From: an uncultured Nitrososphaerota archaeon
GTDB lineage: Archaea; Thermoproteota; Nitrososphaeria; Conexivisphaerales; DTJL01
Direction of reading: 5' to 3'
Assembly: GCA_963842885.1 (NCBI GenBank)
Contig: CAWJIE010000005.1
Coordinates: forward strand, 32,001-96,000
DNA: 64,000 nt
Positions within the stretch are counted from its first letter, which is position 1. Every line of letters begins with the position of its first letter. Positions 34,460 through 64,000 of this stretch are shown here, piece after piece. A model generated the notes under the pieces. That model was not told the origin of the DNA, did no database searches, and saw only the letters and a program-made list of their open reading frames with translations. The position numbers and the translations under genes were made by a program.

Positions 34460-36604
34460 TTGAATCACAGGCTCCTAGCCCTGTTGCTGGTGCTGTCTCT
34501 TGTGCTCCCCTTCGCGTCGGTGGCCACTCACGCGGACGGGACGCCCACCACGCTCATCTACGTAGCCAACCAAGTCAACATCGACTATTTCGGGGGCGTG
34601 GCGATCTCCACGACCGTGACCGTTGTGAACAACGGCACCTCAGGCACGGGTCCCCTGTCGGTGAACGTGACATACGGAGGCGTTCTCACCCCATATATCA
34701 CGAGCTTGGCATCCAACTACAACGTGACGAACATGGACAGGGGCGGATACCACGTCCTACATGTTCAACTTGGCCAGCCTGGGAGCCGGCAACTACTCAC
34801 AGATAACGCTCAACCTGCAGCTGACGGGGATTGTGCAGGAGACCTCCCCTGGCGTCAGGACCTACAACCTGACCAGCTTTCCCTTCGTTGATGTCACCGG
34901 CGGCGTGCTCACTAACGCCACCGCCTCCCTCGGCCTCCCGGCGGGCGTCAACGTGACCACCGACTTCACCCAGTACGGCTTCACCCAAGCCTTGGCCGGC
35001 ACCCCGTCGTATACCTTGGTGTTCACCAACAACACGGTCCCCCAGGTGAGCTTCGTCCCGGTGAGCTACGTCCAGCCTGACATACTGTTCTCGGTGAACA
35101 ACAAGGTTGCGATCGACAACTTCGGCTGGGTCTACACGGACACCACCGTGACCGTGAACAACACCGGACAGGCGGCTACGGGGAATCTTGACGCCAACCT
35201 GACCTACTTCGGGCTGTACGTCCCCTATACCTGGAACCAGAGCTCCAGCTCCACGCTGATCTCCACTCAGGAGACCAACACCACGACATCCTACATGCTG
35301 AGCCTTCCAAGCATCGCGGCGGGCGGGAGCGCCCAGCTCCTCCTGCACTTGAAGACGTGGGGGATGATCAACGAGTTCACTGCGGGGACATACACGTACA
35401 ACCTGACGAACTTCCCGATCGTGGGTATCCCTGGAGGTGGCCTGTACAACGCCACCTCCCTGATTTCCCTGCCGGTGGCGACCACGGTGAGCTCCGACCT
35501 CACCCAGTACGGCTTCGTCCAGCAGCCGCCGGCCAACCCGACCTATGAGCAGTTCTTTACGGAATACACCGAGCCCGTCCCCACCGTCTACTCCGTGAAC
35601 TTCACTGCGACATCGTCGGACAACTTCGGGCTGTTCCAGATCGACAGCGTCCAGAGGACGGTCGGTATGGCGGGTGACGGATCCGTCCTGGTGACCGACA
35701 CCGTCTCCATAACCAATTTCGATACCCAGGACCTGTCCACCTTCAACCTGACCCTGCCCATCTCGGGCCAGTACAGTCTGAAGATGGGATGGGTCGACGG
35801 CGGATACATCACCTTGAGCGACGGGCTGATCACGCTTCCCGTCCCCATCTCTGCCTCAAGCCTGCAGAACCTGGTGATTCAATACACGCTGCCGAGCAGC
35901 GCCGTGAAGGACAATTCGGGGACGATTACCATTGACCTCGGCGCAGGAGCGCTGAACTATACCAACCTCGTGCAATCCTACTCCGTCATCTTCAGCTTCC
36001 CGTCGGGCACCGTGGCACAGGCCTCTACGCCAACATCATTCGTGAACCAGTCGGTAATGCCGGAGGTCGTGCTTACGGCGAAGGTTCCGCTGGGGTGGAA
36101 CCTCTACCTGGCGGCACCGGCCATCGTGGGGCTTCTCATAGCAGCCGTCTTCATATTCTTCCTGTACAGGCGCGCCAACCTTGAGCCCTTCGAGGAGGAC
36201 GGCGTCTCCATTATCCAGGCGAAGGCCGACGTGATCACCTCCCTGCTGGAGCAGTACAGGCTCCGCGGCGAGGGATTCTCATCGTTCGACGACTACTCGG
36301 CCAAACGCAGGTCTCTGGAAGAGGAGAAGACGAAGGTCGACGCTCGCCTACAGGAGTACAAGGTTAAGGGCGCTGAAGGACAAGGCTCAGAAGTCCCTCT
36401 ACGAGAAGATGGCCGTGGAGGACGCCCGCCTGGAGCAACTTTACAGGGAGGGCAAGGTCTCCCTGGAGGAGTGCCTGGCGACCAGGCTGTCTCAGAAGGA
36501 CTTCGACGCCAAGATTCGAGAAGCTCGAGTTGGCGGCCCAGCCCACGGACCTCTTCAAGAAGGCTGAGCAGAAGCAGGCACAGGCAAAGCCTGCTAAACA
36601 ATAG
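34460..36604 (+). CDS. Large type-I membrane glycoprotein, ribophorin-I-like; several frameshifts
   Basis: Signal peptide, repeated beta-rich domains, many NxS/T sequons, TM helix, charged helical tail. Confidence 0.65.
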
Positions 36605-37379
36605 AGTCCTTGAGAGCTTCGCTGCAGCGGCAGCCCCTAGCCTTGGGCAGGGCGGGGATGAGCGCGGACAGGAGCCGTTGCACCTTCTCCACGTTGTGCT
36701 GAAGGGTCTCCACGACCTCTTGGGCGCTGACGGGCCTGTCGGCCCAGACGTCGTAGTCGGTCACCATGGCCACCGTCATGTAGCACATCCCCTTCTCTCT
36801 GGCCAGGTTCACCTCGGGCACCAAGGTCATCCCTATCACATGGGCACCCCAGGCCTTGAACAGCGCCGACTCCGCCCTGGTGCTGAAACGGGGCCCTTCG
36901 ATGCAGACGTAGGTCCCCCTCCCATGGAAAGCCAGAGAGAGAGCCCTGCACTGGGCATGGGCCACCTCGCTCATCTCCGGGCAGAAGGGGTCCGCGAGCG
37001 AAACGTGGGCGACCTGGCCTCCATCGTAGAAGGTGCTCTCTCGCTTCTTGGTCATGTCTATGAACTGGTCGGGGAAGACGATCTGGCCCGGCTCTATTTC
37101 GGGCTGCAGGCTGCCTACGGCCGAGGGGGCGATGATGCGGGAGACGCCCAGCTCCTTCAGGGCCCAGATGTTTGCCCGGTAGTTGACCCTGTGCGGTGGG
37201 ATCCTGTGGCCCTTCCCGTGCCTGGGTATGAAGGCCACCTTCCTGCCTTTGAAGTCGCCCAGGGTCACCCTGTCCGACGTGTCGCCGAAGGGCGTGTACA
37301 CCTTGATCTCCTCGGCGTCCCTGAGCATGGAGATGTCGTAGACGCCGGAGCCTCCGATGATGCCTATCTCCGCTTCCAA
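36594..37379 (-). CDS. mtnP: Methylthioadenosine/methylthioinosine phosphorylase
   Basis: GIIGGSG, PRHG..H, EGPRFSTRAES, MVTDYD. Confidence 0.93.
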   Translation of the reverse strand: MEAEIGIIGGSGVYDISMLRDAEEIKVYTPFGDTSDRVTLGDFKGRKVAFIPRHGKGHRIPPHRVNYRANIWALKELGVSRIIAPSAVGSLQPEIEPGQIVFPDQFIDMTKKRESTFYDGGQVAHVSLADPFCPEMSEVAHAQCRALSLAFHGRGTYVCIEGPRFSTRAESALFKAWGAHVIGMTLVPEVNLAREKGMCYMTVAMVTDYDVWADRPVSAQEVVETLQHNVEKVQRLLSALIPALPKARGCRCSEALKDSIV

Positions 37380-37479
37380 CCGAAATCCGAAGCCTCTTGC
37401 TCCGCGGCGCTATTTATCCATGACTCGCCCGAGGCCTTCGGGCTAGCCTTTTTAACCCGTCCGTCGAGATAGGACAATC

Positions 37480-38784: not shown

Positions 38785-40018
38785 TCAGCGGTCCAGGTAC
38801 TCCTTCTGAGCCCTGCTGAGGCTGTCGATTGAGACGCCTTCGTCCTTCAGCTTCAGTCGCGCCACTTCGAGGTCGGCGTCGGCGGGGACCGCCAGCACCT
38901 TACTCGGGAGGCGCCCCCTGCTCTTGACCAGATGTAGGACGGACAGCAGCTGAAGCGAGAAGCTCATGTCCATTATCTCGATGGGATGGCCGTCGGCTGC
39001 GGCTATGTTCACCAGGCGCCCTTCGGCCAGAAGGAGGAGCCTCTTTCCGCCCTTCAGGGTGAACTGGGTCACGTTGGGCCTGACCTCATCCTGCCTCAGG
39101 GCGACCTCCTTGAGCGCCTTGACGTTGACCTCGACGTCGAAGTGACCGGCGTTGGCCAGGATTACGCCGTCCTTCATGCAGGCCGAAGTGCCTCTTGCCA
39201 ACGATGTCGTCGCCGCCGGTGCAGCTCACGATTACATCGGCGACGCGCGCCGCCTCCTTCATGGGCATGACATCGTACCCTTCAAAGTGGGCCTCCAGCG
39301 CCCGGAAGGGGTCAACTTCGCACACCGCGACCCGGGCCCCCATCCCTCGCAGCCTCTCGGCGACCCCTCTGCCCACCCAGCCGAAGCCTGCTACGACGCA
39401 ACGGCGGCCTGCCAGGATCATGTTGGTGGACCTCATCAGGCCGTCCACTACGCTCTGGCCGCTGCCGAACCTGTTGTCGAAGAGGTGCTTGCTGTAGGCG
39501 TCGTTGACCGCTATCACCGGGAACTTGAGGGCCTTGTCCCTTTGGAGGTTCTTGAACCGCCTGACACCCGTCGTCGTCTCCTCTGTCACGCCGATGATGC
39601 CCTTGGCCATCCCTCTCTCCATGGCCATGACCGAAAGGTCGGCTCCGTCGTCAACGAGCACCGTGGGCTTCGAATCGAGGACCAGCCCCAGGTTGCGAGA
39701 GTACTCCTCCGCCGTCTCGCCTCTCCAGGCGAAGACATGGCTGACCTTCCTCGTAAGAGCCGCGGCGACGTCATCCTGCGTCGTCAGCGGATTGGAACCG
39801 GTCACGGAGACCTCGGCGCCCAGCTCCTGCATGATGGCACAGAGCACCGCCGTCTTCGCCTCTAGGTGAAGGCAGGCGCCCACCCGAATCCCCTTGAGCG
39901 GCTTCTCTTTCGCAAACCTCGATTCCAAGGCGTTGATGACGGGCATCCTTGCCCTGGCCCACTCCATCTTCTTGGCCCCGGCGGGAGCCAGAGAGACGTC
40001 CTTGACCGAATGCTTCAT
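38785..40018 (-). CDS. ahcY: Adenosylhomocysteinase, frameshift near 39180
   Basis: CLHLEAKT, EETTTG, FDNRFG, NAGHFD, DGHP.EIMD.SF. Confidence 0.96.
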
Positions 40019-51367: not shown

Positions 51368-51407
51368 TTTTTGGATATCTGTGGCTGCTGGAAAAGGAAT
51401 CAATATC
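51368..51407 (+). repeat. Repeat family B, copy 2
   Basis: TTTTTGGATATCTGTGGCTGCTGGAAAAG...AATATC. Confidence 0.85.
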
Positions 51408-51554
51408 ATCAGAACGGCGCAGCAAGTCTCACCCGAATGCGCAGGGATTGCATGGAACGCCCCACATCAGCGAAAGGCGTAGTAAGCTAAGCTATTTACG
51501 CATACTTATTCAACATACGAAGCGTTAATATGTCTCCATAGTTCGTAAGCAGTC

Positions 51555-52229
51555 TTGATTACCTTGAAATCTCGACGTGCCGTTTCAAAAACTGTAATGC
51601 TGGCGGTGTTCCTCATCGTCGGCCTAGCCATCGGGTTCTCAGGAGGCTGGCTGCTCCAGGAGCAGACCATCATCAGCCTGACGAATGCCCGGAATAGCCA
51701 GGCGATATACGTCGACTCCGCTAACCACGAGGTCGTCGTCCAAGCCACGGCCATCCCTGCCGCGTTCGTCAATGCGACTATGCATGGCTTGAACTGGGAG
51801 GGCGGCAGCCTGGCAGCCGAGGCGGCATTCACGACCGTGGCGACTCCTACCGAGCTCTATGACGCGCTGGTGAGCTTGGGCGCCGTGCCGTCCAACAATG
51901 TCCATCTCGATTCGGCGGCTGGCACGCTGACGACCGGAACCCACATCACCATCTACGTGACTTGGACCGGAGCCCCCAAGAAGTACCTGCTGACTGACCT
52001 GCTCAACAACTACAATCTCACTTCAGGGGCTGGCACATTCGGTTTCGGCGGGAACCTGGCCACCAACACCCAGATAGGGACGGGATGCATGGCCTGCTTC
52101 TTCTCCTGTGCCATAGGGATAGTCAGCAGCAACGTCAACGGTTGGGAATCGCCCATGATGTGGACCCTGAACTCGGCCCTAATACAGCCAGGGCAGAACG
52201 TAACCTTCATCTATCAAATAGCGTCTTAG
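51555..52229 (+). CDS. YdjY-domain protein, membrane-anchored
   Basis: N-terminal TM; LY.AL..LGA.P.NN, VTW.GA, FGGN.....TGCMACFFSC.IGIVS resemble YdjY. Confidence 0.75.
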   Translation: MITLKSRRAVSKTVMLAVFLIVGLAIGFSGGWLLQEQTIISLTNARNSQAIYVDSANHEVVVQATAIPAAFVNATMHGLNWEGGSLAAEAAFTTVATPTELYDALVSLGAVPSNNVHLDSAAGTLTTGTHITIYVTWTGAPKKYLLTDLLNNYNLTSGAGTFGFGGNLATNTQIGTGCMACFFSCAIGIVSSNVNGWESPMMWTLNSALIQPGQNVTFIYQIAS

Positions 52230-52244
52230 GTCCTGTGAATCCGA

Positions 52245-52904
52245 TTGGATGCGCTGATTGCGGGGTTGTCGGGGGGACTTTCTTTGGTCGTCCTCCCGAG
52301 CCTACCCCTTCTGATTCTTTTCAACGTCGCAGATGACCTAGGGAGGAAGAGGATCCTATCGAGGCTGGTCCTTTTCCCGGCCGGAGTGGTCTTCATCTTC
52401 GGAGTCAGCATCGTGCTCATTCGCGCCTTTCCTGCGGTCTTCCTCCTGAATGCTCACTATCTGGACATCATTTGGGGCCTTCTCATAGTCTGGCTGGGTT
52501 ATGCAGTGGCCCGAAGGGAGGGTGCTTTCGTGATTCGCGCAGCGAGGGAGAACTTCCTCGCTTGGTGCTACGGGACATTCGTGATGGGCATACTCTTCGG
52601 AGCCCTCTGGATGAACTACCTTTCGACCAGAGACACAGCGGTACTACAGATCTACAGCAATGTCCTTTCCGCCACGCTTCCTTCTCTCACCTACGACGCC
52701 GTTGCCTACGCGTTAGGACTCGGACTGACCGTCTCAGTGGCCGCCCTTTTGTTGTACCTCCTGGCGGTTCCCGCAGCAGGACTCCTCAGACGTCACCGGG
52801 CTCAGGTCAAGTGGGTCGTTGGCCCCGTCCTCGCTCTCATCGGGGCCTATTTTATATTCAACGATGTTTGGGCGCTCCTGAGAGTGGCAGGCCTGGTGTT
52901 GTAG
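52245..52904 (+). CDS. CcdA/DsbD-TM-like membrane protein lacking the PC cysteines
   Basis: 6-TM layout, AGL.GG.SL..LP.LP, F.MG.LFG..W, YALG.G. Confidence 0.55.
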   Translation: MDALIAGLSGGLSLVVLPSLPLLILFNVADDLGRKRILSRLVLFPAGVVFIFGVSIVLIRAFPAVFLLNAHYLDIIWGLLIVWLGYAVARREGAFVIRAARENFLAWCYGTFVMGILFGALWMNYLSTRDTAVLQIYSNVLSATLPSLTYDAVAYALGLGLTVSVAALLLYLLAVPAAGLLRRHRAQVKWVVGPVLALIGAYFIFNDVWALLRVAGLVL

Positions 52905-52905
52905 A

Positions 52906-54045
52906 ATGAATCCCAGCAAGGGGGAAGTGATCAAAGAGTTCGAGAAGTGCACCGACTGTTTCGCTTGCCTCAGGCACTGCCCCTCCTACCAGGGGTTCGA
53001 GAAGGGGTTCCTCAAGGGGCTGTCGAAGTCCCTCAAGGAGGGCACGGTGGACGTGGACGACGCCATCGTGGCCTACAGGTGTACGTTCTGCGGCTTCTGT
53101 GAAACGCAGTGCCCCTACGAAGTCAGCGTCAAGGACCTGATGCTGGCCGTGCGCGAGTCATACGTCGCCAGCGGGCAGGGGCCTCTGGCCGCACACACAC
53201 CACTGTACGTGAACAGGAAGGTGAACTTCTTCAGCCTCCTCGACGGCTCGGCTCATGTGAAAATCGAGCATCCCGAGCACGCCGACAGGGTGTTCTTCCC
53301 TGGGTGCTCCCTGAGGGGATATAGGCCGGAACTGATGGAGAAGGTAGGCCATCTCCTGGGAGACCCATATATCATGAAATACGAGTGCTGCGGGAAGCCC
53401 CTCAAGATAATCGGGGCGAGGAAGGAGTACGAGGAGCACCACAAGTCCGTGGTGAAACTCCTCGAGCGGCTCCAGCCCAGCGAGATCATCACCGCCTGCC
53501 CCAATTGCTATAACAACTTCAAGCCCGACATCGGGTTTGCCAAAGTGACCTTCGCGGCCGAGGCGCTTCTCGACACGTTGACACCTTCCAAACCTGATAG
53601 CCGAACGGACCTGGGAACAGTGGCCATTCACGACTCCTGCCCCTACAGGCAGAACCCGGAGCTCTTCGACATCTCCAGGAAGTTCGTGGATACATTCTAC
53701 GGGGGGAAGCGGGTCGAGATGAAATACTCCCGGGACTCGCTCCTGTGCTGCGGGGCGGGAGGGGCGGTGAGCTATGCCAACGAAGGCCTCGCCAAGGATG
53801 GAGCGAGGGTGAGGACAGCGGACGCCAAGGAGCATGGCGCGGACACCATCGTCACCTTCTGCAACTCGTGCGGCGTCCAGCTCGGCGCCGTCACCAGGGA
53901 ATCAGGAGTCAGGGTCGTTCATGCCTTTGACCTTCTCGAACAGGGGAGTTTGCCCGACTACGAATCCATCTACAGGCGCAGCAAGTCGCAGTTCAGTGGC
54001 CTCTGCCTAGTGGAGAACCTCGTGAGGTTGTCCATCCAGGTATGA
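52906..54045 (+). CDS. Fe-S oxidoreductase with 4Fe-4S dicluster and two CCG domains
   Basis: CTDCFAC...CP, CTFCGFC...CP, FPGC, CCG, TACPNC, HDSC, CCGAGG, TFCNSC. Confidence 0.9.
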   Translation: MNPSKGEVIKEFEKCTDCFACLRHCPSYQGFEKGFLKGLSKSLKEGTVDVDDAIVAYRCTFCGFCETQCPYEVSVKDLMLAVRESYVASGQGPLAAHTPLYVNRKVNFFSLLDGSAHVKIEHPEHADRVFFPGCSLRGYRPELMEKVGHLLGDPYIMKYECCGKPLKIIGARKEYEEHHKSVVKLLERLQPSEIITACPNCYNNFKPDIGFAKVTFAAEALLDTLTPSKPDSRTDLGTVAIHDSCPYRQNPELFDISRKFVDTFYGGKRVEMKYSRDSLLCCGAGGAVSYANEGLAKDGARVRTADAKEHGADTIVTFCNSCGVQLGAVTRESGVRVVHAFDLLEQGSLPDYESIYRRSKSQFSGLCLVENLVRLSIQV

Positions 54046-55394
54046 TCGAAAACCCCGTGCTGAGACCGCACGCACAGGGCAGGACCGAAACCAACAGTGT
54101 TTGCCCCGTCTGCCTGAAGCCGGTATCGGCGACGCTGACCGAGGAGGGCGCCAGGATCTACATGGAGAAGGCCTGCGACGAACACGGGTCCTTCCGGGCT
54201 CTGGTCTGGAGCGACAGCGGGATGTACTCGTCTTACGAAGAGATGTTCCACTTTGACCAAGCGGGAGAGATGAAGGATGCGTGTCCTTTCGAATGCGGCC
54301 TATGTGAGTCGCATGAGCAGGGGACATGCGTGGCCATCGTCGAAGTGACGAACAGGTGCAACCTAAGATGCAAGGTGTGCTTCGCCGCCTCGAATGAAGG
54401 CAGGAGAACGGAGCCTTCGCTGGAATCCCTGGCCGAAGCATTCAAGACCATCATCGAGAACGGCGGGGCGACTCGCCCTGTCCAGCTGTCAGGAGGGGAG
54501 CCGACGACCCGGAGAGACCTCACGGAGATCGTCCGCATGGGCAGGGACATGGGCCTGCGTCACATTGAGATCGACACGAACGGAGTGGCCCTGGGCAACA
54601 ACCCATTGGTGGCCGATAGGCTGGCTGAGGCCGGCGTCAGCGCCATATACCTGCAGTTCGACGGCCTCGACGACAGCGTGTACAGGACGCTGAGAGGCGT
54701 CAACCTCCTCGACGTCAAGATGAAGGCCCTCGAGAATTGCAGGAGGAGCCATCTGGCCGTCGTGCTGGTGCCGGCGGTGGTCAAGGGAGTCAACGATGGC
54801 CAGATCGGCGACCTCATAAGGCTGGCCGCCTCAAGGGAGGAAATCAAGGGAATCAACTTCCAGCCAGCGACATTTCTTGGCAGGTTTCCCAGCGACCTGA
54901 AGAACTCCGAGGACAGGACCACCATCCCCGACGTCGTCCGAGCCATCGAGGCCCAGACAGGAGGTGAGGTGGCAGCCAGGGACTTCTTTCCCATACCATC
55001 GCTACACTATTCCTGCTCGGCCGTGACCCTCGCCCTGGCAGGGGAGGAGGGGCTCATGCCCCTTTCAAGGGTCATCGACGCCGTGGACGTCGTGAACCGC
55101 CTCGAGAATCCGTGCTGCACGGTCACCAAGGCCATCCCCAAGCTCTGGGACGTCTCAAATGAAAGGGAGACGTTCGACAGGCTCCGGAGCTATCTTGCGG
55201 GCTTGGGCCTGGAGATCGAAGGCGCTGAATCGAAGAAGATACTCTCAATCTCCATGATGGCCTTTCAAGACAGCTGGACGCTCGACGTCGAAAGGATGAG
55301 GAGGTGCCGCGTCCACGTTGTGAGGCCCGGGGGACAACTGGTCCCCTTCTGCGCGTATTACCTTGCCGATGCCAACGGCAGACGGATCTACTAG
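54042..55394 (+). CDS. Radical SAM enzyme, Tes/MJ0619/TrsS-like family
   Basis: N-terminal CPVC...C..H, CPFECGLC..H, CNLRCKVC, SGGEPT, YLQFDG, C-terminal MAFQD...D.ER..RC..H....PFC.Y. Confidence 0.9.
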   Translation: MIENPVLRPHAQGRTETNSVCPVCLKPVSATLTEEGARIYMEKACDEHGSFRALVWSDSGMYSSYEEMFHFDQAGEMKDACPFECGLCESHEQGTCVAIVEVTNRCNLRCKVCFAASNEGRRTEPSLESLAEAFKTIIENGGATRPVQLSGGEPTTRRDLTEIVRMGRDMGLRHIEIDTNGVALGNNPLVADRLAEAGVSAIYLQFDGLDDSVYRTLRGVNLLDVKMKALENCRRSHLAVVLVPAVVKGVNDGQIGDLIRLAASREEIKGINFQPATFLGRFPSDLKNSEDRTTIPDVVRAIEAQTGGEVAARDFFPIPSLHYSCSAVTLALAGEEGLMPLSRVIDAVDVVNRLENPCCTVTKAIPKLWDVSNERETFDRLRSYLAGLGLEIEGAESKKILSISMMAFQDSWTLDVERMRRCRVHVVRPGGQLVPFCAYYLADANGRRIY

Positions 55395-55409
55395 GCGGCG
55401 GACGTTGCA

Positions 55410-56150
55410 TTGTCTTCTTCCAATGAGCCTTCGGCTGCTTTAGACAAGGCCGCCGTGAAAGAAGGATACGACACACTGATGAGCCAGGTTTACGACTTCA
55501 TCACATGTTGGTTCCTGGGACCCTTGATAGCCAGGTCCCACACGACCCTGCTGAGGGCTCTGGGGGCGCCGGAGCAGTCTAGGTTGCTCGATGTGGGCTG
55601 CGGCACTGGCACGCTTCTGCGGATGGCTGGTGAAGGTCATCCCGAGTTGGCGGTGGGGCTGGACCTCTCCATCGGGATGCTCACTAGGGCGAAGCGAAAG
55701 CTTGACCGGGCTGGCTTGGAGGTGGTAAGCGGATTCGTGCTGGGCGACGCTGAAGCGATGCCTTTCAGAGATTCGAGCTTCGAGGTCTGCACGTGCACGG
55801 GGACCTTGAGGTTCCTCCCTGACCCGGCCTTGGCTCTTCATGAGACTTGCCGGGTTCTCGAAGCAGGCGGCCTCCTAGGGTTAAGGGAGATGGCGGGCGG
55901 CGATGAACCGAGGAGGATCCGGCACATCCCTCTTCCTTTCAAGAGAAGTTTCGTCGTGTGGAGGCTGCTCCCCGACCGATGGGTGGAGATACTCCTCAGG
56001 GCAGCGGGCTTCGAAGGAGTGAGGTCGTATCAAGGAGGGAGCGTCCCACAGTTCATCATAGCGATGGGGCCGCCGCTCAGGAAGTACGTCTTCTTCTTCG
56101 GAATCAAGGCCGCACTCCAACCGAGTTACGCTGGGGTACATACCTACTGA
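55410..56150 (+). CDS. Class I SAM methyltransferase (UbiE-like)
   Basis: LLDVGCGTG, GLDLS.GML, GDAE.MPF.D.SF. Confidence 0.88.
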   Translation: MSSSNEPSAALDKAAVKEGYDTLMSQVYDFITCWFLGPLIARSHTTLLRALGAPEQSRLLDVGCGTGTLLRMAGEGHPELAVGLDLSIGMLTRAKRKLDRAGLEVVSGFVLGDAEAMPFRDSSFEVCTCTGTLRFLPDPALALHETCRVLEAGGLLGLREMAGGDEPRRIRHIPLPFKRSFVVWRLLPDRWVEILLRAAGFEGVRSYQGGSVPQFIIAMGPPLRKYVFFFGIKAALQPSYAGVHTY

Positions 56151-56454
56151 CATCGTCACCATGCAGGCGTTCAATGGAGGGCAAAGCCTGCCTGCGGAAG
56201 TCAACGCCGACTCTAACCCCTCTGGTTACCGCCAACGATCAAGTCCAACGAGTCAATCTCCTCCTCGCCTAGCTGGTATCTCCCGAGCATTGTGCGGGAC
56301 TCCTGTGTGACACCAATAGGAGGTTGACTTCCCCCACCGGCTCTGGCCGGCTACAGGTCCGGCCTCTGAGTCATGGCGCTGGGATGGAACCTCGTTATCC
56401 TAGCGGTAGTCATATGAACCAGTGCGGCTAGGAGGAAACGGGTCGAAAGAGGAT

Positions 56455-57153
56455 TTGCCCGAGCGGGCGGAGAATGAAATCAAGATAGCCGTCAGGAAGA
56501 GATATGCGGCTGCCAGCCAGGGGACGGCCTGCTGCTGCGGGGACGCTACAACGGGAGGGTCGCAGGGGTCGGGCGTCGTGTCCCTCGGCTGCGGGTCTCC
56601 CGTCAAGTTCGCTGACCTAAAGCCAGGCATGACGGTCCTGGACCTGGGAAGCGGAGGGGGCGTAGACGTCTTCGCAGCGTCTAGGAGGATGTTCGGGGAG
56701 GGGAGGGTTCTGGGCGTCGATTCAACTCCGGAGATGGTGCTTCTGGCGAAGGAGACGGCTTCGAAGCGCGGCATGACGAATGTGGAGTTCCGCCTCGGTG
56801 AGATTGAGAACCTTCCCGTCGAAAGCGAGACCGTGGACGTCATCCTAAGCAACTGCGTCATCAATCTAGTCCCCGACAAGAAGAGGGCTTTCGAGGAGGC
56901 GTATCGCGTGCTTAAACATGGTGGTTCATTGACGATTTCGGACATAGTGGCCGAGAAGCCCCTCCCCGCCCTTGTAAGGGGAGATTTGGAGAAGTGGTGT
57001 GAGTGCGAAGCGGGATGTCTCACGAAGGAGGAGCTCCGCGCCTTCCTCCATGGGGCAGGCTTCGTGGACTTCAAGACCCTTGACGAAAGCCTATGGTCTG
57101 AGGCAGGCGATGTGAAGCTGGCTTCACTCACGTTCTATGCCAAGAAGCAGTAG
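56455..57153 (+). CDS. arsM: Arsenite methyltransferase-like
   Basis: CCCG, SLGCGSP, LDLGSGGG.D, GEIE.LP, SNCVINL, W..C.AG; the conserved As-binding Cys residues are present. Confidence 0.85.
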   Translation: MPERAENEIKIAVRKRYAAASQGTACCCGDATTGGSQGSGVVSLGCGSPVKFADLKPGMTVLDLGSGGGVDVFAASRRMFGEGRVLGVDSTPEMVLLAKETASKRGMTNVEFRLGEIENLPVESETVDVILSNCVINLVPDKKRAFEEAYRVLKHGGSLTISDIVAEKPLPALVRGDLEKWCECEAGCLTKEELRAFLHGAGFVDFKTLDESLWSEAGDVKLASLTFYAKKQ

Positions 57154-57372: not shown

Positions 57373-57400
57373 CATGATCTTGGATATCTGTTGATGCTGA
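57373..57400 (+). repeat. Repeat family B, copy 3 (truncated)
   Basis: CATGATCTTGGATATCTGTTGATGCTG. Confidence 0.65.
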
Positions 57401-57458
57401 TATTGCTCTCCACTCACATCCAGCTGCTCTGTCGATGGCTTTGACGGTCTGATTTCAT

Positions 57459-58601
57459 CTAGTATGTTGCCGCGGGATTGTAAGGTGCGTATTCCGCGAT
57501 CCAGATATGCCAAAAGCCGGAGGAGTTAGAGCTCAAGGCCAGGAACGTCCCGTTGGTGGGGTCCCAACTGGGCTGCGTCGATTGTGCCTCCGGCGGACCC
57601 ATCCGCATTATAGTGTTGTTGCTCACGCTCCAGACGTAAACCCCCAGACCGGAAGACGAACCGTTGAGCACGCACGCCACGAGGCCGCCAACGGGGCTCC
57701 AACGTAGCGGGTCCGCGGAGATGACCTCCCCCGGACGCTCCTTGGTAGTATGACCGATGAGCAAGTAAAGGTACGACGCATGGTAACTACTCAGGCCTTC
57801 GGTCCAGACGTTAAACTCGGTTATGTTCAGCCGGTTGACCCAGACGTTAACGCCTCCAGGAGGAGGTTGCTGCGGCACCAACCCCGTCCAGTTTGAATAG
57901 TAGGCTATCATGGTGCCGTCTGAGCTTATCGCTCCCGCCCAGTAGTTGGCTCCGCCTTCGCTCAGGATCCCTGTCTCGCCCGAAGTCAGGTTCGTCCACT
58001 TGATCATGTAGAGCCCGCCCTCTGTATCAGTGTAGACCACCCGGTCGTTCCCGGCCCAGATGGGATTGAAGTCGGGGCTGTTCACCGCCGCCACAACGCG
58101 CTCCGAGTGTGTGCTCATGTCCACGCACATGAGCTGCAATGTCGGCGCCTCCACGTAGAAGAGGAGGTGCGAACCGTCCGGGCTCCACCCGGGGGTCATG
58201 TTGACGGCGCTATCGACGCCGCTCACGGTGATAGTGGAGAGGCTCGAAAGGGTGACCACCCTAATCGAAGCGTTGTTTCCCTCCAGGCTCCAGTAGGCGA
58301 TGCGCGACGAGTCGGGGCTCCAAGAGGGATTCATCGCCACCATGCCCGACGGGGTGAGCTGCTTCTCCCCCGTGCCCTGGGGGGTGATGACGTAGATCCC
58401 CCATCCTCCGTTGCGGTCAGAGGAGAACGCTATCCGCGTCCCGTCCGGGCTCCAGGCGGGGGACGTGTCGTTCCATGAGCCGGACGTAAGGACCCCGTAG
58501 TTCAACGGCCTAGTGTTCTTGAACCCAGGAGATGGTAGGCTCACCGTCACCAGAACGGGGACAACGCAAAGGCAGAGCGCCAGAGTGACCGCCCCTGCCA
58601 T
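57459..58601 (-). CDS. Secreted TolB/PD40 beta-propeller protein
   Basis: Repeated P.WSPDG..IAF.S motifs; N-terminal anchor. Confidence 0.88.
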   Translation of the reverse strand: MAGAVTLALCLCVVPVLVTVSLPSPGFKNTRPLNYGVLTSGSWNDTSPAWSPDGTRIAFSSDRNGGWGIYVITPQGTGEKQLTPSGMVAMNPSWSPDSSRIAYWSLEGNNASIRVVTLSSLSTITVSGVDSAVNMTPGWSPDGSHLLFYVEAPTLQLMCVDMSTHSERVVAAVNSPDFNPIWAGNDRVVYTDTEGGLYMIKWTNLTSGETGILSEGGANYWAGAISSDGTMIAYYSNWTGLVPQQPPPGGVNVWVNRLNITEFNVWTEGLSSYHASYLYLLIGHTTKERPGEVISADPLRWSPVGGLVACVLNGSSSGLGVYVWSVSNNTIMRMGPPEAQSTQPSWDPTNGTFLALSSNSSGFWHIWIAEYAPYNPAATY

Positions 58602-58901
58602 CGTTGCACGGGAGGACCGCACGGGACCGTTAATGGTATTCACATACTTAAATCTGTATATACGCGTATGCACAAACCAATATCAGCATACGCCGGAAAC
58701 CTCAGAGGTCGCCCGGTCCACCTCGGGCTTGCAGCCGGGCTGCTGATAGGGTGGCAGAGGTTGCGCTCCCCGGGACCATACGCCAGCGCAGACCGTTCCC
58801 TTCTGATTTCAACCACATAGGCAGCATTCCTTTCCTAGGACAGCGGCATCCCAAATTCCGGGGGGATGAGGCCGGCCGCCACTCATCCACGTGGACTGGA
58901 G

Positions 58902-60261
58902 TCACAGATGAAAGATTTGTCTCCAGCTCGAGGCGAAAATGCCTGCGAGGGCCGCCATGACGCCGACTATAATCAGGGCTATCCCGTCTTCGATGTACGG
59001 AAAGAACGTCTGACCATTGGTCATCAGGTTAAATACGAAGAAGATGTTCGCGGTCGTGCACACGACATAGCCGACGGTCAGCGACAGGCCAGCCAACGCG
59101 CCAATCTTGCCTCTCACCCCGAACATCACGGCCACAAGCATGAAGAGTAAGACCGCGGTCAGAGTCACGAGGGCATGTTCAATTCCCACCTGGAAGGTAT
59201 CGAGGTAGTAGATCGCGAAGGATTGGTTCGTGAAGCCTTTGAGGTGCGCAAACACGTAGACTGCGGGAAGCGTAACGGCGAAGTCTCCCCAGTAGAGTAG
59301 GAAGAGCAATCCGAAAGCGAGGGACTCCTTCATAGCGCCGATCGGTCCCCTTATGTGGAGCCTCTTAACCTCCTCCGCCATCACCGCACACATCACGAAC
59401 AGGGACGCCTGCATCGGGATGCCAGAGACGATAAAGAACTCGCCAGTGATTGTTGTGATGGTGGGCATCGCAGCGAGCGCGAAAAGTGCCACGGCCGGTG
59501 TGCCAATGAGCACCCCGTAAAGACCTATCTTCACAAGGAGGCCAGGCGCCCCAAGATACTGGTCGGCTCTGAACCACTTCACTATGAGTAAGACGATGGC
59601 TGCGTCGATGAATGCCATGATGAGCCCCTCATGCACAGCTTCCAATGAGGGGAGCGCGCCTAACAGCGCCGGGTGGAACCACAGGCTGTCCCCCAACGCC
59701 GCGTAGGAGCCTGCCGCCACGGAGGCCAGGGCCGCAGCGACCACAACCCACATCGCCAGCTGAGTCAGGTCAAACCCCAGTAATCGCATCGAAGCCGAGG
59801 AGGCCCTGCGGGGCCAGAGAGACAAGAAGAGGGCCGCAGCGGCGCCTGCCGCCAGTCCCATTCCAATGACCATGACGGCATATGCCAAGATGCTGTCGCT
59901 AATCAGAGGGATGAAAACCATCGCGCCCGATGACATCAAGCAGCCTGCTGTAATGGCGTGTTTGATGGCGTAACGCCTCCTTTTCGTTAATGTCGAAGAC
60001 ACTAACCGTGACAAGCACAAGCACTCCGGCCAAGGGCAATGCGAGGGAGTGGACGAAGAGGGGATTGAGGGAGACGATCCTGTACAGTAGGGACTGGGGA
60101 AGGCCGATGGCTTCGTACGCATTCCCCCCAGCGGGAGAGAAGATCATCCAGAGGAAAACGAGCAGGACTTCCCAGACGACGAGCGTGAAGACCTCCAGCG
60201 AAGAGGCGAACCTGAAGGGCCTTTCTTCGTAAGATGAATCAGACCCGCCAGAAGCAGTCAT
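58902..60261 (-). CDS. Polytopic membrane protein with intramembrane His, frameshift near 59985
   Basis: About 11-12 TM helices across two frames; VHSL, VHEG, EHAL. Confidence 0.65.
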
Positions 60262-60727: not shown

Positions 60728-60771
60728 CATGATTTTGGATATCTATTGCTGCTGGAAAGAATTACGATACC
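60728..60771 (+). repeat. Repeat family B, copy 4
   Basis: CATGATTTTGGATATCTATTGCTGCTGGAAAG...GATACC. Confidence 0.85.
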
Positions 60772-61096
60772 CTCGGTCAGACCGACGACAATGGCTCTCA
60801 TCTAATGCCTTTGTCTCTATAACGCGTGGGCAAAAGCCCCTTGTGGCTCTGAAGTCTGGAGGCGAAGGTACTCATACCCAATTAGGTTCAAGCCCCTTCT
60901 CTTTGAGCTTAAGACATAATATCTGATTCAGCACTCGACCCGGTTCCATGATTGAACGCATTCCCTTGAATACCGTTCCACAAGCGATCTGTAGGCTTAA
61001 CGCGTGCGAAGTTGCAGGCGTGCCTATTGCTTTTTGGGTTCTAGTCCCTACCAGAGTCGGAGCCGACCCTACGGAATCGAAGGCACAAGTGTAGCT

Positions 61097-61561
61097 CTAG
61101 ACAGACAGCTGCTTTGAGAGCGCCAAGACGAGCGACTGAATTTCGCCCGCGATCCTTCTGACTTCAGTTAGGTCCTTTCCCTTCGGGTCGTCTAAGTTCC
61201 AATCTATCAGCTTCTTCTGCATCTTTGCGAGAATCGGTCTTGGACAGACCTTCTCGACGGAACAACCCATGGTCACGACCAGGTCTGCCTTTTCGATCAT
61301 GGCCTTAGTCAGCAGTTTGGGGACAGCGCCGGCCAGGTCCAACCCTTTCTCATGCATTACTTCTGCAACAACAGGGTCCACCTTCGATGCGGGCAGCGTA
61401 CCCGCACTGGCAGCGATGAACCCATTCTGCCTGGCTAGAACTTCAGCCATTTGACTCCTTCCAGCGTTCTCGACGCAGACAAAGAGCAACTTGGGAAGTT
61501 CCCTTTGCGATCGTGATTTCGATTCTCCTTTCCCCTTGTGGATTTCTTCGTCCAGAGCCAT
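61097..61561 (-). CDS. arsC: LMW-PTP-fold arsenate reductase
   Basis: FVCVENAGRSQMAE, SAGT.P, VTMGC....CP, W.L.DP. Confidence 0.88.
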   Translation of the reverse strand: MALDEEIHKGKGESKSRSQRELPKLLFVCVENAGRSQMAEVLARQNGFIAASAGTLPASKVDPVVAEVMHEKGLDLAGAVPKLLTKAMIEKADLVVTMGCSVEKVCPRPILAKMQKKLIDWNLDDPKGKDLTEVRRIAGEIQSLVLALSKQLSV

Positions 61562-61627: not shown

Positions 61628-62734
61628 TTGAGCGAACCAGTACTCCAAGATGCTCCGAAGCGCCTGTCGTTCCTAACAAGGTTCCTGACCGTCTGGATTT
61701 TTCTGGCGATGGGTGCGGGGATCGGTCTTGGCGCCCTATTCCCAGGTTTCGCCACATTCCTCAAGGGCTTGAGCGTGGGCACAACCTCGATACCTATAGC
61801 TATAGGCCTTCTCTGGATGATGTACCCCCCATTGGCGGGGGTCCGCTACGAAGAGCTTTCGAAACTCAGGAACATGAAGAAGATGTTCTCTGCATCACTC
61901 ATCTTGAACTGGGCGGTGGGCCCTGTCTTGATGTTCGCTCTGGCCTGGGTGTTCCTTCCAGATCTTCCCGAATACAGGATAGGTCTGATCCTGATAGGCC
62001 TCGCACGCTGCATCGCCATGGTCATCGTATGGAACCGATTAGCCGGAGGGGATAATGAGTATGCCGCAATCTTGGTAGCCCTGAACTCCATCTTCCAGGT
62101 AGTCTTCTACTCTGTCTACGCCTACGCCTTCGTGACCGTCCTCTCAACCTGGATCACCCCAGGAGGGGGGGCCATAGTCAACGTCTCCATCATTGAAGTA
62201 GCTGAGACTGTCCTGATTTTCCTCGGGATGCCATTCTTCGGAGGAGTCCTCACGCGACTAATCTTGCTGCCGCGGAAAGGAGCAGACTGGTACAACCATA
62301 GGTTCCTAAGGTACCTAAACCCTGTTTCGTTAATCGGGCTCCTATTCACCATTGTGGTCATGTTTTCGCTGAAGGGCGAATACATCCTCGCTTTGCCCTT
62401 GGACGTCCTCCGAGTTGCCATCCCGCTCGCAGCCTACTTCGTCATCATGTTCACCCTCTCCTTCGCCCTGTCGAAGGCGTTGCATTTCGACTATCCATCT
62501 TCGGCCACGATGTCCTTCACGGCGGCGAGCAACAACTTCGAGCTGGCCATAGCGGTGGCTGTCGGCGTTTTCGGCATAAACTCGGGCGTGGCCTTCGCCA
62601 CGGTCATAGGTCCCCTTATCGAAGTGCCTGTCATGATAGGCTTGGTGAACGTATCACTCTGGGCTAAGAAGAAGTGGTATCGCTCGGAAAGCCTTACTAG
62701 AGAGACTGTCGTGGCGAAGGAACCAGTTGCCTAG
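61628..62734 (+). CDS. acr3: Arsenite efflux pump Acr3
   Basis: [38 protein letters not shown]. Confidence 0.96.
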
Positions 62735-62911: not shown

Positions 62912-64000
62912 TTAGAACCCTATCGGCATGGGTTGGATGCCGTTCGTTGTGTCCAATATGAAGATGTGGTAATACCCCCCCACAGTCGCTGCAAATGCGA
63001 GATATATGCTGTCGGGGCTCCAAGACGGCTCGGTCGAATTGGCGTTTATAGGCCCCAACTGGTTGGCGGCCCAGGAGGTGACGTCCCATAGGAAGAGAGA
63101 CGTTCCGACGGCCTGGTTCTGTGCTATGTATGCTACGATGCTGCCGTTGGGGCTCCAGGCCAAGCTTTGGCTAGGGTCTATGGTTCCCGGCGTATATGGC
63201 GCGTCGAAGTAGGTGCGGACGTCGACGGCTATGGGCTCGGGTCCGTACTGGAACGTGGCGTTGGTGCCGTCAAGCCCGCTCACCCACAGATTGAAGTCCC
63301 CCGGGCTGTAGGTGCCGTAGTAATGCCTACCTGGGTGCTGGTTCTCAGGGACCAAGTCAGAGATATAGACAAGTCTCGAAGTGCTGAGCGATACCAAGGG
63401 CGCGGTGTAGTTCGCGTCGCCGCCCAGGACTACGCTCGAAGTTCCACTATTCAGGTCGTAGCTGAGGACTTCGTAGCTGCCCGCCGACTCGGTGGAATAA
63501 TAGATTTCATTCGGAGAGACCCAGGTCGCAGAGGAGTCATTTCCCTCCACCGCAGCGATTACTCTTACAGCCAAGGTCCTGGTGCTCACCGATACCAACT
63601 CAACGTTGCCCGCTGACATGTAGAAGAGCAGCTGCGTCCCGTCAGGGCTCCACTTTGGTTGCGTTTGAAGGACCGAATAGTTCCCCGAAGTCACGGTTGT
63701 GATGCTGGAGTTGGAAACAAAGACTATCCTTATGTCAGTTCGTGAGCCCACCTGGCTCCAGAAGGCCACACGAGATGAATCGGGGCTCCATGAAGGATCT
63801 GTCGCCGCCATGTTCGATGGCGTGAGCGCCTTCTCCCATGAGGCATCGAGCGCCATCGCCCATACCTGCCAGCCTCCGTTACGGTCCGAAACGAAAGCTA
63901 TCGTGCTTCCGTCAGGGCTCCAGACTGGAGACTTGTCGTTCCAAGCGCCGGAGGTGATGGCTACATACGCTACTTCGCCAACCAACGCGGCGGGAGGCGG
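62912..64000 (-). CDS. TolB/PD40 beta-propeller protein, paralogue of 57459-58601 (5' end outside window)
   Basis: TSGAWNDKSPVWSPDG..IAFVSDRNGGW closely matches the paralogue. Confidence 0.88.
   Translation of the reverse strand, partial: PPPAALVGEVAYVAITSGAWNDKSPVWSPDGSTIAFVSDRNGGWQVWAMALDASWEKALTPSNMAATDPSWSPDSSRVAFWSQVGSRTDIRIVFVSNSSITTVTSGNYSVLQTQPKWSPDGTQLLFYMSAGNVELVSVSTRTLAVRVIAAVEGNDSSATWVSPNEIYYSTESAGSYEVLSYDLNSGTSSVVLGGDANYTAPLVSLSTSRLVYISDLVPENQHPGRHYYGTYSPGDFNLWVSGLDGTNATFQYGPEPIAVDVRTYFDAPYTPGTIDPSQSLAWSPNGSIVAYIAQNQAVGTSLFLWDVTSWAANQLGPINANSTEPSWSPDSIYLAFAATVGGYYHIFILDTTNGIQPMPIGF

Follow-up and report, generated by a model that had tools for sequence, protein, structure and literature searches.

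A five-gene radical SAM cassette genetically coupled to the arsenite methyltransferase ArsM in uncultured archaea of peat

Introduction

To our knowledge, only two enzyme pairs build carbon-arsenic bonds beyond simple methylation, and both couple the arsenite methyltransferase ArsM to a radical S-adenosylmethionine (SAM) enzyme. The ArsS-ArsM pair makes arsenosugars, and both orders of action are known among the characterised pairs, ArsM followed by ArsS and ArsL followed by ArsM. NCBIfam holds a model, NF038099, for the ArsM of the ArsS-ArsM pair, and ArsL and ArsM are reported to make arsinothricin (10.1101/2024.02.01.577332; PMC8552651). Here we analyse a stretch of 64,000 nucleotides (nt), the window, from an uncultured Nitrososphaerota archaeon of the order Conexivisphaerales (genome G000, 2.03 Mb), in which a five-gene cassette with a radical SAM enzyme is followed by arsM; coordinates are those of the window unless another contig is named. 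The genetic coupling of ArsM to a radical SAM enzyme is shared with the ArsL-ArsM and ArsS-ArsM pairs and in the present case goes as far as fusion. The cassette differs from these pairs in its radical SAM family, in having four further conserved genes and in its host, an archaeon of peat.

The closest described relatives of this radical SAM enzyme are the tetraether lipid synthase Tes and TrsS. The paper that names TrsS is reportedly that of Haft and Tolstoy from 2025. The name and a reference to these authors appear in PMC13188914. In Clostridium sp. OS1-26, whose canonical TrsS scores 706.5 bits on the TrsS model NF045646, the neighbouring genes encode a molybdopterin aldehyde oxidoreductase, NF045663 (a pyridine nucleotide-disulfide oxidoreductase/dicluster protein), the DVU_1556 methyltransferase, DVU_1555 (a C-GCAxxG-C-C protein), DVU_1553 (an adenosine monophosphate (AMP)-ligase), an XdhC-type maturation factor and DVU_1551 (a nucleoside triphosphate (NTP) transferase). 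Three kinds of genes stand together both there and in our window: those for a radical SAM enzyme, for a CCG-dicluster protein and for a methyltransferase of class I.

Results

The cassette is coupled to ArsM by gene fusion and by adjacency

The five genes of the cassette encode, in this order, a YdjY-domain protein, a CcdA/DsbD-like membrane protein, an HdrD-like CCG iron-sulfur protein, the radical SAM enzyme and a class I SAM methyltransferase that we call MT5 (Table 1). They are co-directional, with successive junctions of 15 nt, 1 nt, a 4-nt overlap and 15 nt in the list of open reading frames (ORFs), and arsM follows on the same strand after a gap of 271 nt, in agreement with the original prediction of five tightly coupled genes and then arsM. 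That prediction had also placed arsC and acr3 about 4 kb downstream; both were recovered by their Pfam families, beginning 3.9 kb past arsM. Each of arsM, arsC and acr3 gave a single tblastn match in the genome, and all three matches fall at this locus.

The window ArsM (243 aa) aligns to the solved ArsMs 5evj, 8xt7 and 4fr0 (E 1e-26 to 3e-23). The cysteines of its G-C-G-S-P, S-N-C-V-I-N-L and C-E-C motifs match those of the solved enzymes, so that by sequence alignment the protein has both the arsenic-binding cysteines and a SAM fold like theirs. It also has an N-terminal C-C-C stretch.

The link between ArsM and the radical SAM enzyme is most direct in two natural fusion proteins (P0016 and P0017, 724-725 aa), in which a radical SAM enzyme of the cassette clade, 64-66% identical to that of the window, is followed by a complete ArsM domain, whose N-terminal stretch is Cys-rich and which has both G-C-G-S-P and S-N-C-V-I-N-L. 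The P0016 cluster has members on 11 and 19 contigs. When metagenomes were scanned with the fusion protein, 80 loci were obtained, of which 9 hold the radical SAM enzyme and 71 ArsM only. We judged the status of ArsM at the 12 evaluable cassette loci, counting G447, L067 and L068 once because they are the same locus. ArsM was fused (intact or as a remnant) or adjacent in 11 of the 12. It was joined to the C-terminus of the radical SAM enzyme in three (L060, L061, L066); adjacent on the same strand in the window genome, convergent in two other genomes of its genus (G065 and G060) and divergent in the G447/L067/L068 lineage; and in four loci (L062, L063, L064, L065) a remnant of 50-80 residues of its Cys-rich N-terminus was joined to the radical SAM enzyme. 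The cassette is thus genetically coupled to ArsM.

We also asked what kind of ArsM is fused. Compared with the 71 stand-alone ArsMs, the fused domain is 45-78% identical, and 63-78% identical to 56 of them. These ArsM-only loci contained arsC or acr3 in 39 of 71 cases (34 of the 49 loci of L069-L118 minus L114). Because close stand-alone ArsMs often share their locus with arsC or acr3, the fused domain is an ars-type ArsM. A short contig of 3.6 kb (L086) carries the end of an MT5 gene, then ArsM, then arsC.

The five-gene core is conserved and rare

The radical SAM enzyme was searched for in a sample of 301 genomes of the class; the counts take in three unpublished genomes that support none of our claims. 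Matches over the full length with 71% identity or more occurred only in three other genomes of the same genus, G048 (89%), G065 (72%) and G060 (71%), and the next best full-length match was 41% identical. In all three, the genes for the YdjY protein, the membrane protein, the CCG protein, the radical SAM enzyme and MT5 lie side by side, with the order of the last two swapped in G065 and G060. A fifth member of the genus (G095, 59% complete) gave only a match of Tes grade. Among the metagenome loci, L060-L066 form a peat lineage whose CCG and radical SAM proteins are 62-66% identical to those of the window, and L067 and L068 correspond to G447, from another family of the phylum, with 41-49% identity. 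All five genes are present in every radical SAM metagenome locus with enough sequence. The core is therefore kept in three lineages (four Conexivisphaerales genomes, the peat contigs and the second family) at 41-95% protein identity and through changes of gene order. The cassette is rare in the phylum: among the 401 genomes sampled, the CCG protein has a close homologue in two, G000 and G447. The nearest public relative of the locus is a Conexivisphaerales metagenome-assembled genome from peat, and the stretch is carried by 7 sequencing runs, all of DNA and mostly peat metagenomes.

The radical SAM enzyme belongs to a clade apart from Tes and named TrsS

With the Radical_SAM domain PF04055 (95.9 bits), Zn_ribbon_HMPTM (66 bits, Pfam) and a CxxxCxxC motif, the enzyme is a member of the radical SAM superfamily. 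Its best NCBIfam match is the TrsS equivalog model NF045646, on which it scores 456.3 bits, below the cut-off of 490; on the Tes model NF045702 it reaches 381.7 bits, below the cut-off of 450, with the best stretch at profile positions 2-317 of 486. Named TrsS proteins share about 37-41% identity with the window enzyme. Models of ArsS or ArsL are absent from the best 25 of the 54 NCBIfam matches, the 25th of which scores 42 bits. Among solved structures, the tetraether lipid synthase GDGT-MAS comes closest (7tol, E 2.2e-96), and the alignment covers residues 15-321 and 399-440, which is to say the N-terminal 320 and the last 40 or so residues. The cluster-binding cysteines are the same as in Tes save C96, whereas the middle of the C-terminal region (322-398) is shorter than in Tes and unaligned.

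The alignment agrees with the N-terminus and auxiliary-cluster motifs of the Tes/MJ0619/TrsS family that had been noted from the letters of the window. The cysteines of the zinc ribbon, those of the auxiliary cluster (C81/C85/C88) and those of the radical SAM motif (C106/C110/C113) are common to all four alignment groups, while C96 occurs in all cassette, sister and TrsS rows and in 0 of 15 Tes rows. In a tree of 55 rows (IQ-TREE quick, with only the Shimodaira-Hasegawa-like approximate likelihood ratio test, SH-aLRT, as support, drawn with a midpoint root), the cassette group was set beforehand by identity to the query (at least 48%) and not by the tree; it comprises 14 rows, in 8 of which synteny was checked. 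These rows form one branch (SH-aLRT 99), apart from named TrsS (100) and from the Tes-like rows (99). The named-TrsS branch takes in unnamed relatives of TrsS and leaves out the cassette clade, whose nearest neighbour is an unnamed archaeal group with a support of 89 (unstarred). We conclude that the enzyme is not a canonical TrsS, in view of its score below the cut-off and its separate branch.

Nor is it the orthologous Tes of this genome, since a separate Tes lies on another contig (G000:C3:231692-233130) and scores above the Tes cut-off, with 455 bits on its C-terminal part alone; the identity of the two, which would have undone the original prediction, is therefore ruled out. This Tes matches its model in two frames that meet at about C3:232147-232150 (244.9 and 455 bits), which a frameshift, a gene in two parts or a fault of the assembly could explain.

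Two further radical SAM observations were made in the relatives. A protein of about 413 aa matching the model NF045502 ("variant_rSAM", 171-189 bits) adjoins the cassette in L060 (12168-13415, +), L061 (12340-13575, -), L066, L067 (5313-6554, +) and G447 (L150:188-1426). It is present exactly in the lineages with a full ArsM outside the Conexivisphaerales genus, with 57-78% identity between lineages. We compared it with the 406-aa ORF downstream of arsM in the window and found the two not to be homologous; NF045502 was not found in the window genome. In addition, G236, from another family of the same class, has two radical SAM enzymes of the Tes/TrsS superfamily (L042 = G236:C261 and L043 = G236:C177), 31-32% identical to that of the window. 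After each of them comes an ArsM-like, Cys-rich methyltransferase that has a C-C pair at its N-terminus and, in place of the S-N-C motif of ArsM, a C-E-C motif.

The cassette is a sister design to the TrsS system

TrsS has the same domain plan as the window enzyme (rubredoxin-like zinc ribbon, auxiliary cluster, radical SAM motif and C-terminal cysteines), C96 included. The canonical TrsS neighbourhood, by contrast, is not reproduced in the window, where two of its members have partial counterparts: the CCG protein scores 153 bits on its best NCBIfam model NF045663 (cut-off 530), over profile positions 296-634 of 759, and MT5 scores 70 bits on the DVU_1556 model NF045667 (cut-off 155). The molybdenum aldehyde oxidoreductase, the XdhC factor, the NTP transferase, the AMP-ligase and the C-GCAxxG-C-C protein are all missing from the window locus. 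The CCG protein of the window is the counterpart of the C-terminal half of NF045663 and lacks the NAD(P)-binding half. Selenocysteine is absent, and the window has YdjY, the CcdA-like protein and a true ArsM in addition. As for selenocysteine in TrsS itself, none of the 15 TrsS matches listed from 200 Clostridia genomes contained an in-frame stop. Since the reductase-methyltransferase-radical SAM trio is kept and the molybdenum genes are absent, the cassette is of a design sister to that of the TrsS system; its accessory genes are different, and it comes with a true ArsM.

We also scanned eight long TrsS-like proteins from the best 150 matches of the representative search, and all were fusions: three with methyltransferases, three with MobA-like NTP transferases, one with an AMP-binding enzyme and one with DUF5714. 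In this set (P0169, P0175, P0176, P0181, P0184, P0188, P0192 and P0242) the methyltransferase stands at either end and the MobA-like domain comes with or without an HD domain. The fusion partners mirror the canonical TrsS neighbours, which ties the TrsS system to nucleotide-linked, (molybdo)pterin-type chemistry.

Partner proteins of the cassette

The CCG protein is the best-conserved member, with 49-95% identity across cassette orthologues. Its CCG domain PF02754 (76.7 bits, in 2 stretches) and Fer4_8 PF13183 (36.7 bits) give it the plan of HdrD/GlpC-type proteins, two [4Fe-4S] clusters and two CCG domains; it differs from those systems in having no known HdrE, DsrM or flavoprotein partner. 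MT5 carries a Methyltransf_11 domain (74.3 bits) and is kept in every cassette with enough sequence to judge.

The YdjY protein scores 81.5 bits on NF040466 (cut-off 50), and its homologues carry a precomputed PF27149 annotation. The CxxCxxxC motif highlighted by the original prediction as that of an exported protein (C178, C181, C185) proved invariant in 15 of 15 aligned orthologues. An AlphaFold2 (AF2) model (mean predicted local distance difference test 81.6) shows a long N-terminal helix and then a beta-rich domain. The N-terminus has a hydrophobic helix with basic residues before it, and an R-R pair ahead of this helix occurs in 9 of 12 complete N-termini. Export by the twin-arginine translocation (Tat) pathway is thus possible from the residues; because the pair is missing in the other 3, we do not claim a Tat signal. 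A word-based search with this protein found 11 relatives, all of the cassette type.

The membrane protein (219 aa) resembles CcdA in size, helix count and protein-language-model features. Its nearest protein-atlas clusters are of the DsbD_TM/DsbD_2 kind (similarity 0.95), in which 16-54% of members carry these families, and all of its 19 relatives are of the cassette type, several being labelled CcdA by the Joint Genome Institute. In contrast to CcdA, it has no Pfam match (E <= 0.01), to DsbD_TM, DsbD_2 or any other family, and no NCBIfam match. The L-P-x-L-P position in the first transmembrane segment (TM1) holds Ser in the window and its genus (LPSLP), Cys in the peat lineage (LPCLP) and Tyr in G447, whereas the second cysteine (C108, in W-C-x-G-T-F) is kept in at least 90% of 20 rows. 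The window protein therefore lacks the CcdA pair of cysteines in TM1 and TM4, its first cysteine being replaced by Ser.

Foldseek against the PDB (E <= 0.001) returned nothing for either the YdjY protein or the membrane protein. A wide VIA search with the YdjY domain gave a weak match to the DUF371 protein 7y7n (Z 6.2 over 120 residues), and VIA-align ranked CcdA 5vkv third for the membrane protein (Z 6.6, root-mean-square deviation 4.4, 189 residues), below the informative level for helical bundles. A complex prediction for the two proteins scored 0.05, against a mark of 0.32.

The core moves as a unit, and a dispersed repeat lies on both sides of it

By blastn, the closest relative G048 shares with G000 at this locus only C5:83474-88126 (window 51474-56126), a block of 4.65 kb that spans the ydjY promoter region to the MT5 end at 87% identity. 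The flanks of the G048 cassette match other G000 contigs, and the G065 and G060 cassettes also lie in other contexts, so that all four genus members differ. Because the genomic context is different in each, the core moves as a unit, which supports the earlier suggestion that it was acquired as a module. Its GC content of 0.593 is near the 0.583 of the genome, falling at the 56th percentile of windows of 4.6 kb, and gives no compositional sign of (recent) foreign origin.

The window had further been described as bracketing the cassette and arsM with copies of a repeat, family B. Real copies do lie on either side, but they belong to a short, dispersed intergenic element of 21 copies and do not form a long-terminal-repeat pair. 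About 45 nt are well conserved, and the 9.4 kb that surround the cassette and the ars genes hold three copies. The 20-nt core occurs four times in the window and in 0 of 100 shuffles of it; allowing one mismatch at most, the 2.03-Mb genome holds the 21 copies, and a reversed-pattern control gave 0. The repeat is not specific to the module, as the nearest copy is 4 kb off in G048 and none is present in the fetched G065 and G060 loci. The G060 cassette sits between regions homologous to G000 C4:137478 and C4:131901, where G000 has two repeat copies, and the repeat may mark variable regions. Copies such as G000:C4:132127(-) and C4:137495(-) sit where synteny with the genus relatives breaks. The element could be a recombination site, a miniature inverted-repeat transposable element or a regulatory element, and it has no Rfam match, the sole match of an Rfam scan of the window being one tRNA.

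Table 1. Features of the 64,000-nt window around the radical SAM cassette.
Feature	Position	Strand	Basis or remark
YdjY-domain protein, N-terminal signal-anchor and C-terminal CxxCxxxC	51555..52229	+	NF040466; start TTG 51555, or ATG 14 codons later (used by the public gene call)
CcdA/DsbD-like six-helix membrane protein	52245..52904	+	Protein-language-model features, weak fold match; no family hit
HdrD-like CCG iron-sulfur protein, 2x[4Fe-4S] ferredoxin domain and two CCG domains	52906..54045	+	Pfam
Radical SAM enzyme, Tes/TrsS superfamily, cassette clade	54042..55394	+	Pfam, NCBIfam, tree, alignment
Class I SAM methyltransferase MT5, distantly DVU_1556-like	55410..56150	+	Methyltransf_11, NF045667
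Short ArsM (arsenite methyltransferase)	56422..57153	+	NF008823, solved-ArsM alignment; start GTG 56422 or TTG 56455
arsC, low-molecular-weight phosphatase type	61097..61561	-	PF01451, 73.2 bits
acr3 arsenite efflux permease	61628..62734	+	PF01758 (SBF), 182.7 bits
Dispersed intergenic repeat copy	51371..51440	+	About 115-185 nt upstream of ydjY
Dispersed repeat, degenerate copy	57380..57405	+	227 nt after arsM; decays after about 24 nt
Dispersed repeat copy	60735..60805	+	Between gene of unknown function and arsC
Dispersed repeat copy	2396	-	20-nt core pattern
ORF near arsC/acr3	57459-58673	-	Listed with the TolB-like genes
406-aa ORF between arsM and arsC	58902-60122	-	No Pfam or NCBIfam match
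ORF near arsC/acr3	62912-63985	-	Listed with the TolB-like genes
903-aa ORF	34761-37472	+	No Pfam family at E <= 0.001
S-adenosylhomocysteine hydrolase-like ORF	39086-40018	-	310 aa only; Pfam domains partly covered

Other genes of the window are listed in Table 1. Two genes for TolB-like beta-propellers (PD40 repeat), at 57459-58673 and 62912-63985 on the minus strand, stand on either side of the arsC/acr3 pair. The S-adenosylhomocysteine hydrolase-like ORF, 12 kb upstream of the cassette, is perhaps truncated or wrongly delimited; the cassette near it would use much SAM.

Discussion

The coupling of the cassette to ArsM suggests that a movable five-gene module works with ArsM in arsenic-directed radical SAM chemistry, on arsenic or a similar metalloid, a reading to which we give about an even chance. 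The main evidence that module and ArsM work together is the natural fusion plus the adjacency in three orientations. We infer every chemical step, and the direction in which the steps run, from the genes present and their surroundings; for this reason, and because some lineages have lost the ArsM domain, our confidence is moderate. ArsM and the radical SAM enzyme would act in succession on the same arsenic species, the latter making or altering a carbon-arsenic bond through radical chemistry on thiol-bound trivalent arsenic. MT5 might add a further methyl group, the cytoplasmic CCG protein might give electrons to the clusters or re-reduce a disulfide formed in the cycle, and the membrane protein and the exported cysteine protein might handle arsenic or the product at the membrane.

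Several observations weigh against this reading. The window ArsM scores 243.2 bits on NF008823 (profile positions 6-229 of 272), 20 bits short of the cut-off of 263. In G048, the closest relative and one in which the core is present, arsM was not found in 6.3 kb upstream and 1.16 kb downstream, and the L062-L065 lineage has lost the ArsM methyltransferase domain, so that the core may work without ArsM. The linkage of homologous operons to ars genes, which the original prediction took as decisive, holds for arsM but hardly beyond it: among the cassette loci fetched, no other than that of G000 has arsC or acr3 adjacent, except in part the short contig L086. No ArsR-type regulator was found among the window ORFs scanned with Pfam and NCBIfam, and no RNA run is listed among the 7 runs that carry the stretch. 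The roles proposed for the YdjY and membrane proteins rest on weak similarity. Moreover, ArsM-family enzymes can methylate other metalloids, and canonical TrsS loci, the nearest named relatives, are linked with a molybdopterin aldehyde oxidoreductase and the genes for its maturation rather than with arsenic.

This last point leads to a different explanation, namely a trimmed TrsS-type pathway whose substrate would be a small metabolite or cofactor, such as a pterin or a compound related to the molybdenum cofactor, and not arsenic, with ArsM as a recruited extra or a neighbour in a variable region. The TrsS of OS1-26 does stand amid NF045663, a methyltransferase and molybdenum genes, the window CCG protein aligns to the C-terminal part of NF045663, the eight long TrsS-like proteins are fused to methyltransferase, MobA-like, AMP-binding or DUF5714 partners, and C96 is common to the window enzyme and TrsS-like proteins. 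However, no molybdenum genes lie beside the cassette in the window or in the loci of its relatives, and the model NF045668 has no match above cut-off in the genome and none near the cassette. The radical SAM enzyme falls outside the named-TrsS branch and below its cut-off, MT5 falls short of DVU_1556, and the partner that is fused or repeatedly adjacent is an ars-type ArsM with all arsenic-binding cysteines. We therefore consider this explanation unlikely. A membrane-lipid role, in which a Tes paralogue would act on archaeal lipid tails and the methyltransferases would decorate the lipid beside an unrelated arsM, could draw on GDGT-MAS as the closest solved structure and on the two membrane-associated proteins of the module. 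Tes homologues of unknown role are also reported from bacteria (PMC8941075; PMC13159169). Yet residues 322-398 do not align to Tes, the clade is separate and the genome keeps its own Tes; a rare and mobile module does not behave as a lineage trait, and the ArsM fusion would be left unexplained, all of which makes a lipid role very improbable.

The linkage to ArsM could also be read without any new compound, if the radical SAM enzyme and MT5 extended or sped up anoxic methylation (for example to volatile trimethylated species), with the CCG protein re-reducing the ArsM disulfide and the membrane and exported proteins exporting or scavenging the products. In heterodisulfide reductases (HdrB/HdrD) it is the CCG domains that reduce disulfides, the peat habitat is anoxic and the module lies beside the only arsC and acr3 of its genome, so that such a booster of detoxification draws on the same ArsM linkage as arsenic-directed radical chemistry does. 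Five genes with a three-cluster radical SAM enzyme seem, however, elaborate for a task that ArsM does alone, and the cassette loci outside G000 without arsC and acr3, together with the variants without an intact ArsM, do not fit it well; we regard it as quite unlikely. A bolder form of the arsenic-directed reading would make the cassette enzyme the first carbon-arsenic bond former of the Tes/TrsS superfamily: it would join an alkyl or lipid-tail radical to methylated trivalent arsenic supplied by ArsM, yielding an archaeal arsenolipid or another unprecedented organoarsenical that the membrane protein and the three-cysteine exported protein would deal with at the cell surface. The parallel would be with the lipid-coupling relative, which likewise makes a carbon radical on an unactivated tail and joins a second tail to it. 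We regard this proposal as a long shot.

As for novelty, no description of the cassette or of a radical SAM-ArsM fusion was found in the literature searched, of which parts were accessible and which did not include the paper naming TrsS. The original prediction is supported in part, the module being real, mobile, distinct from Tes and from canonical TrsS, and genetically coupled to ArsM; the system is less isolated than was thought, as its trio echoes the TrsS neighbourhood modelled in NCBIfam.

In conclusion, a fused or adjacent ArsM in related microbes points to a route, so far undescribed, by which organic compounds of arsenic are made or processed. The cassette represents a third, unrelated radical SAM family tied to ArsM by natural fusion and repeated adjacency, with four conserved partner genes. 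Its hosts are uncultured archaea of anoxic peat, a habitat in which mobility and toxicity are influenced by the methylation of arsenic and by its organic species. The 724-aa fusion and the four genes are a clonable candidate for a missing step in anaerobic arsenic chemistry, and would open a first way to the function of the YdjY domain and of the TrsS-like proteins, a large and uncharacterised branch of the Tes superfamily.

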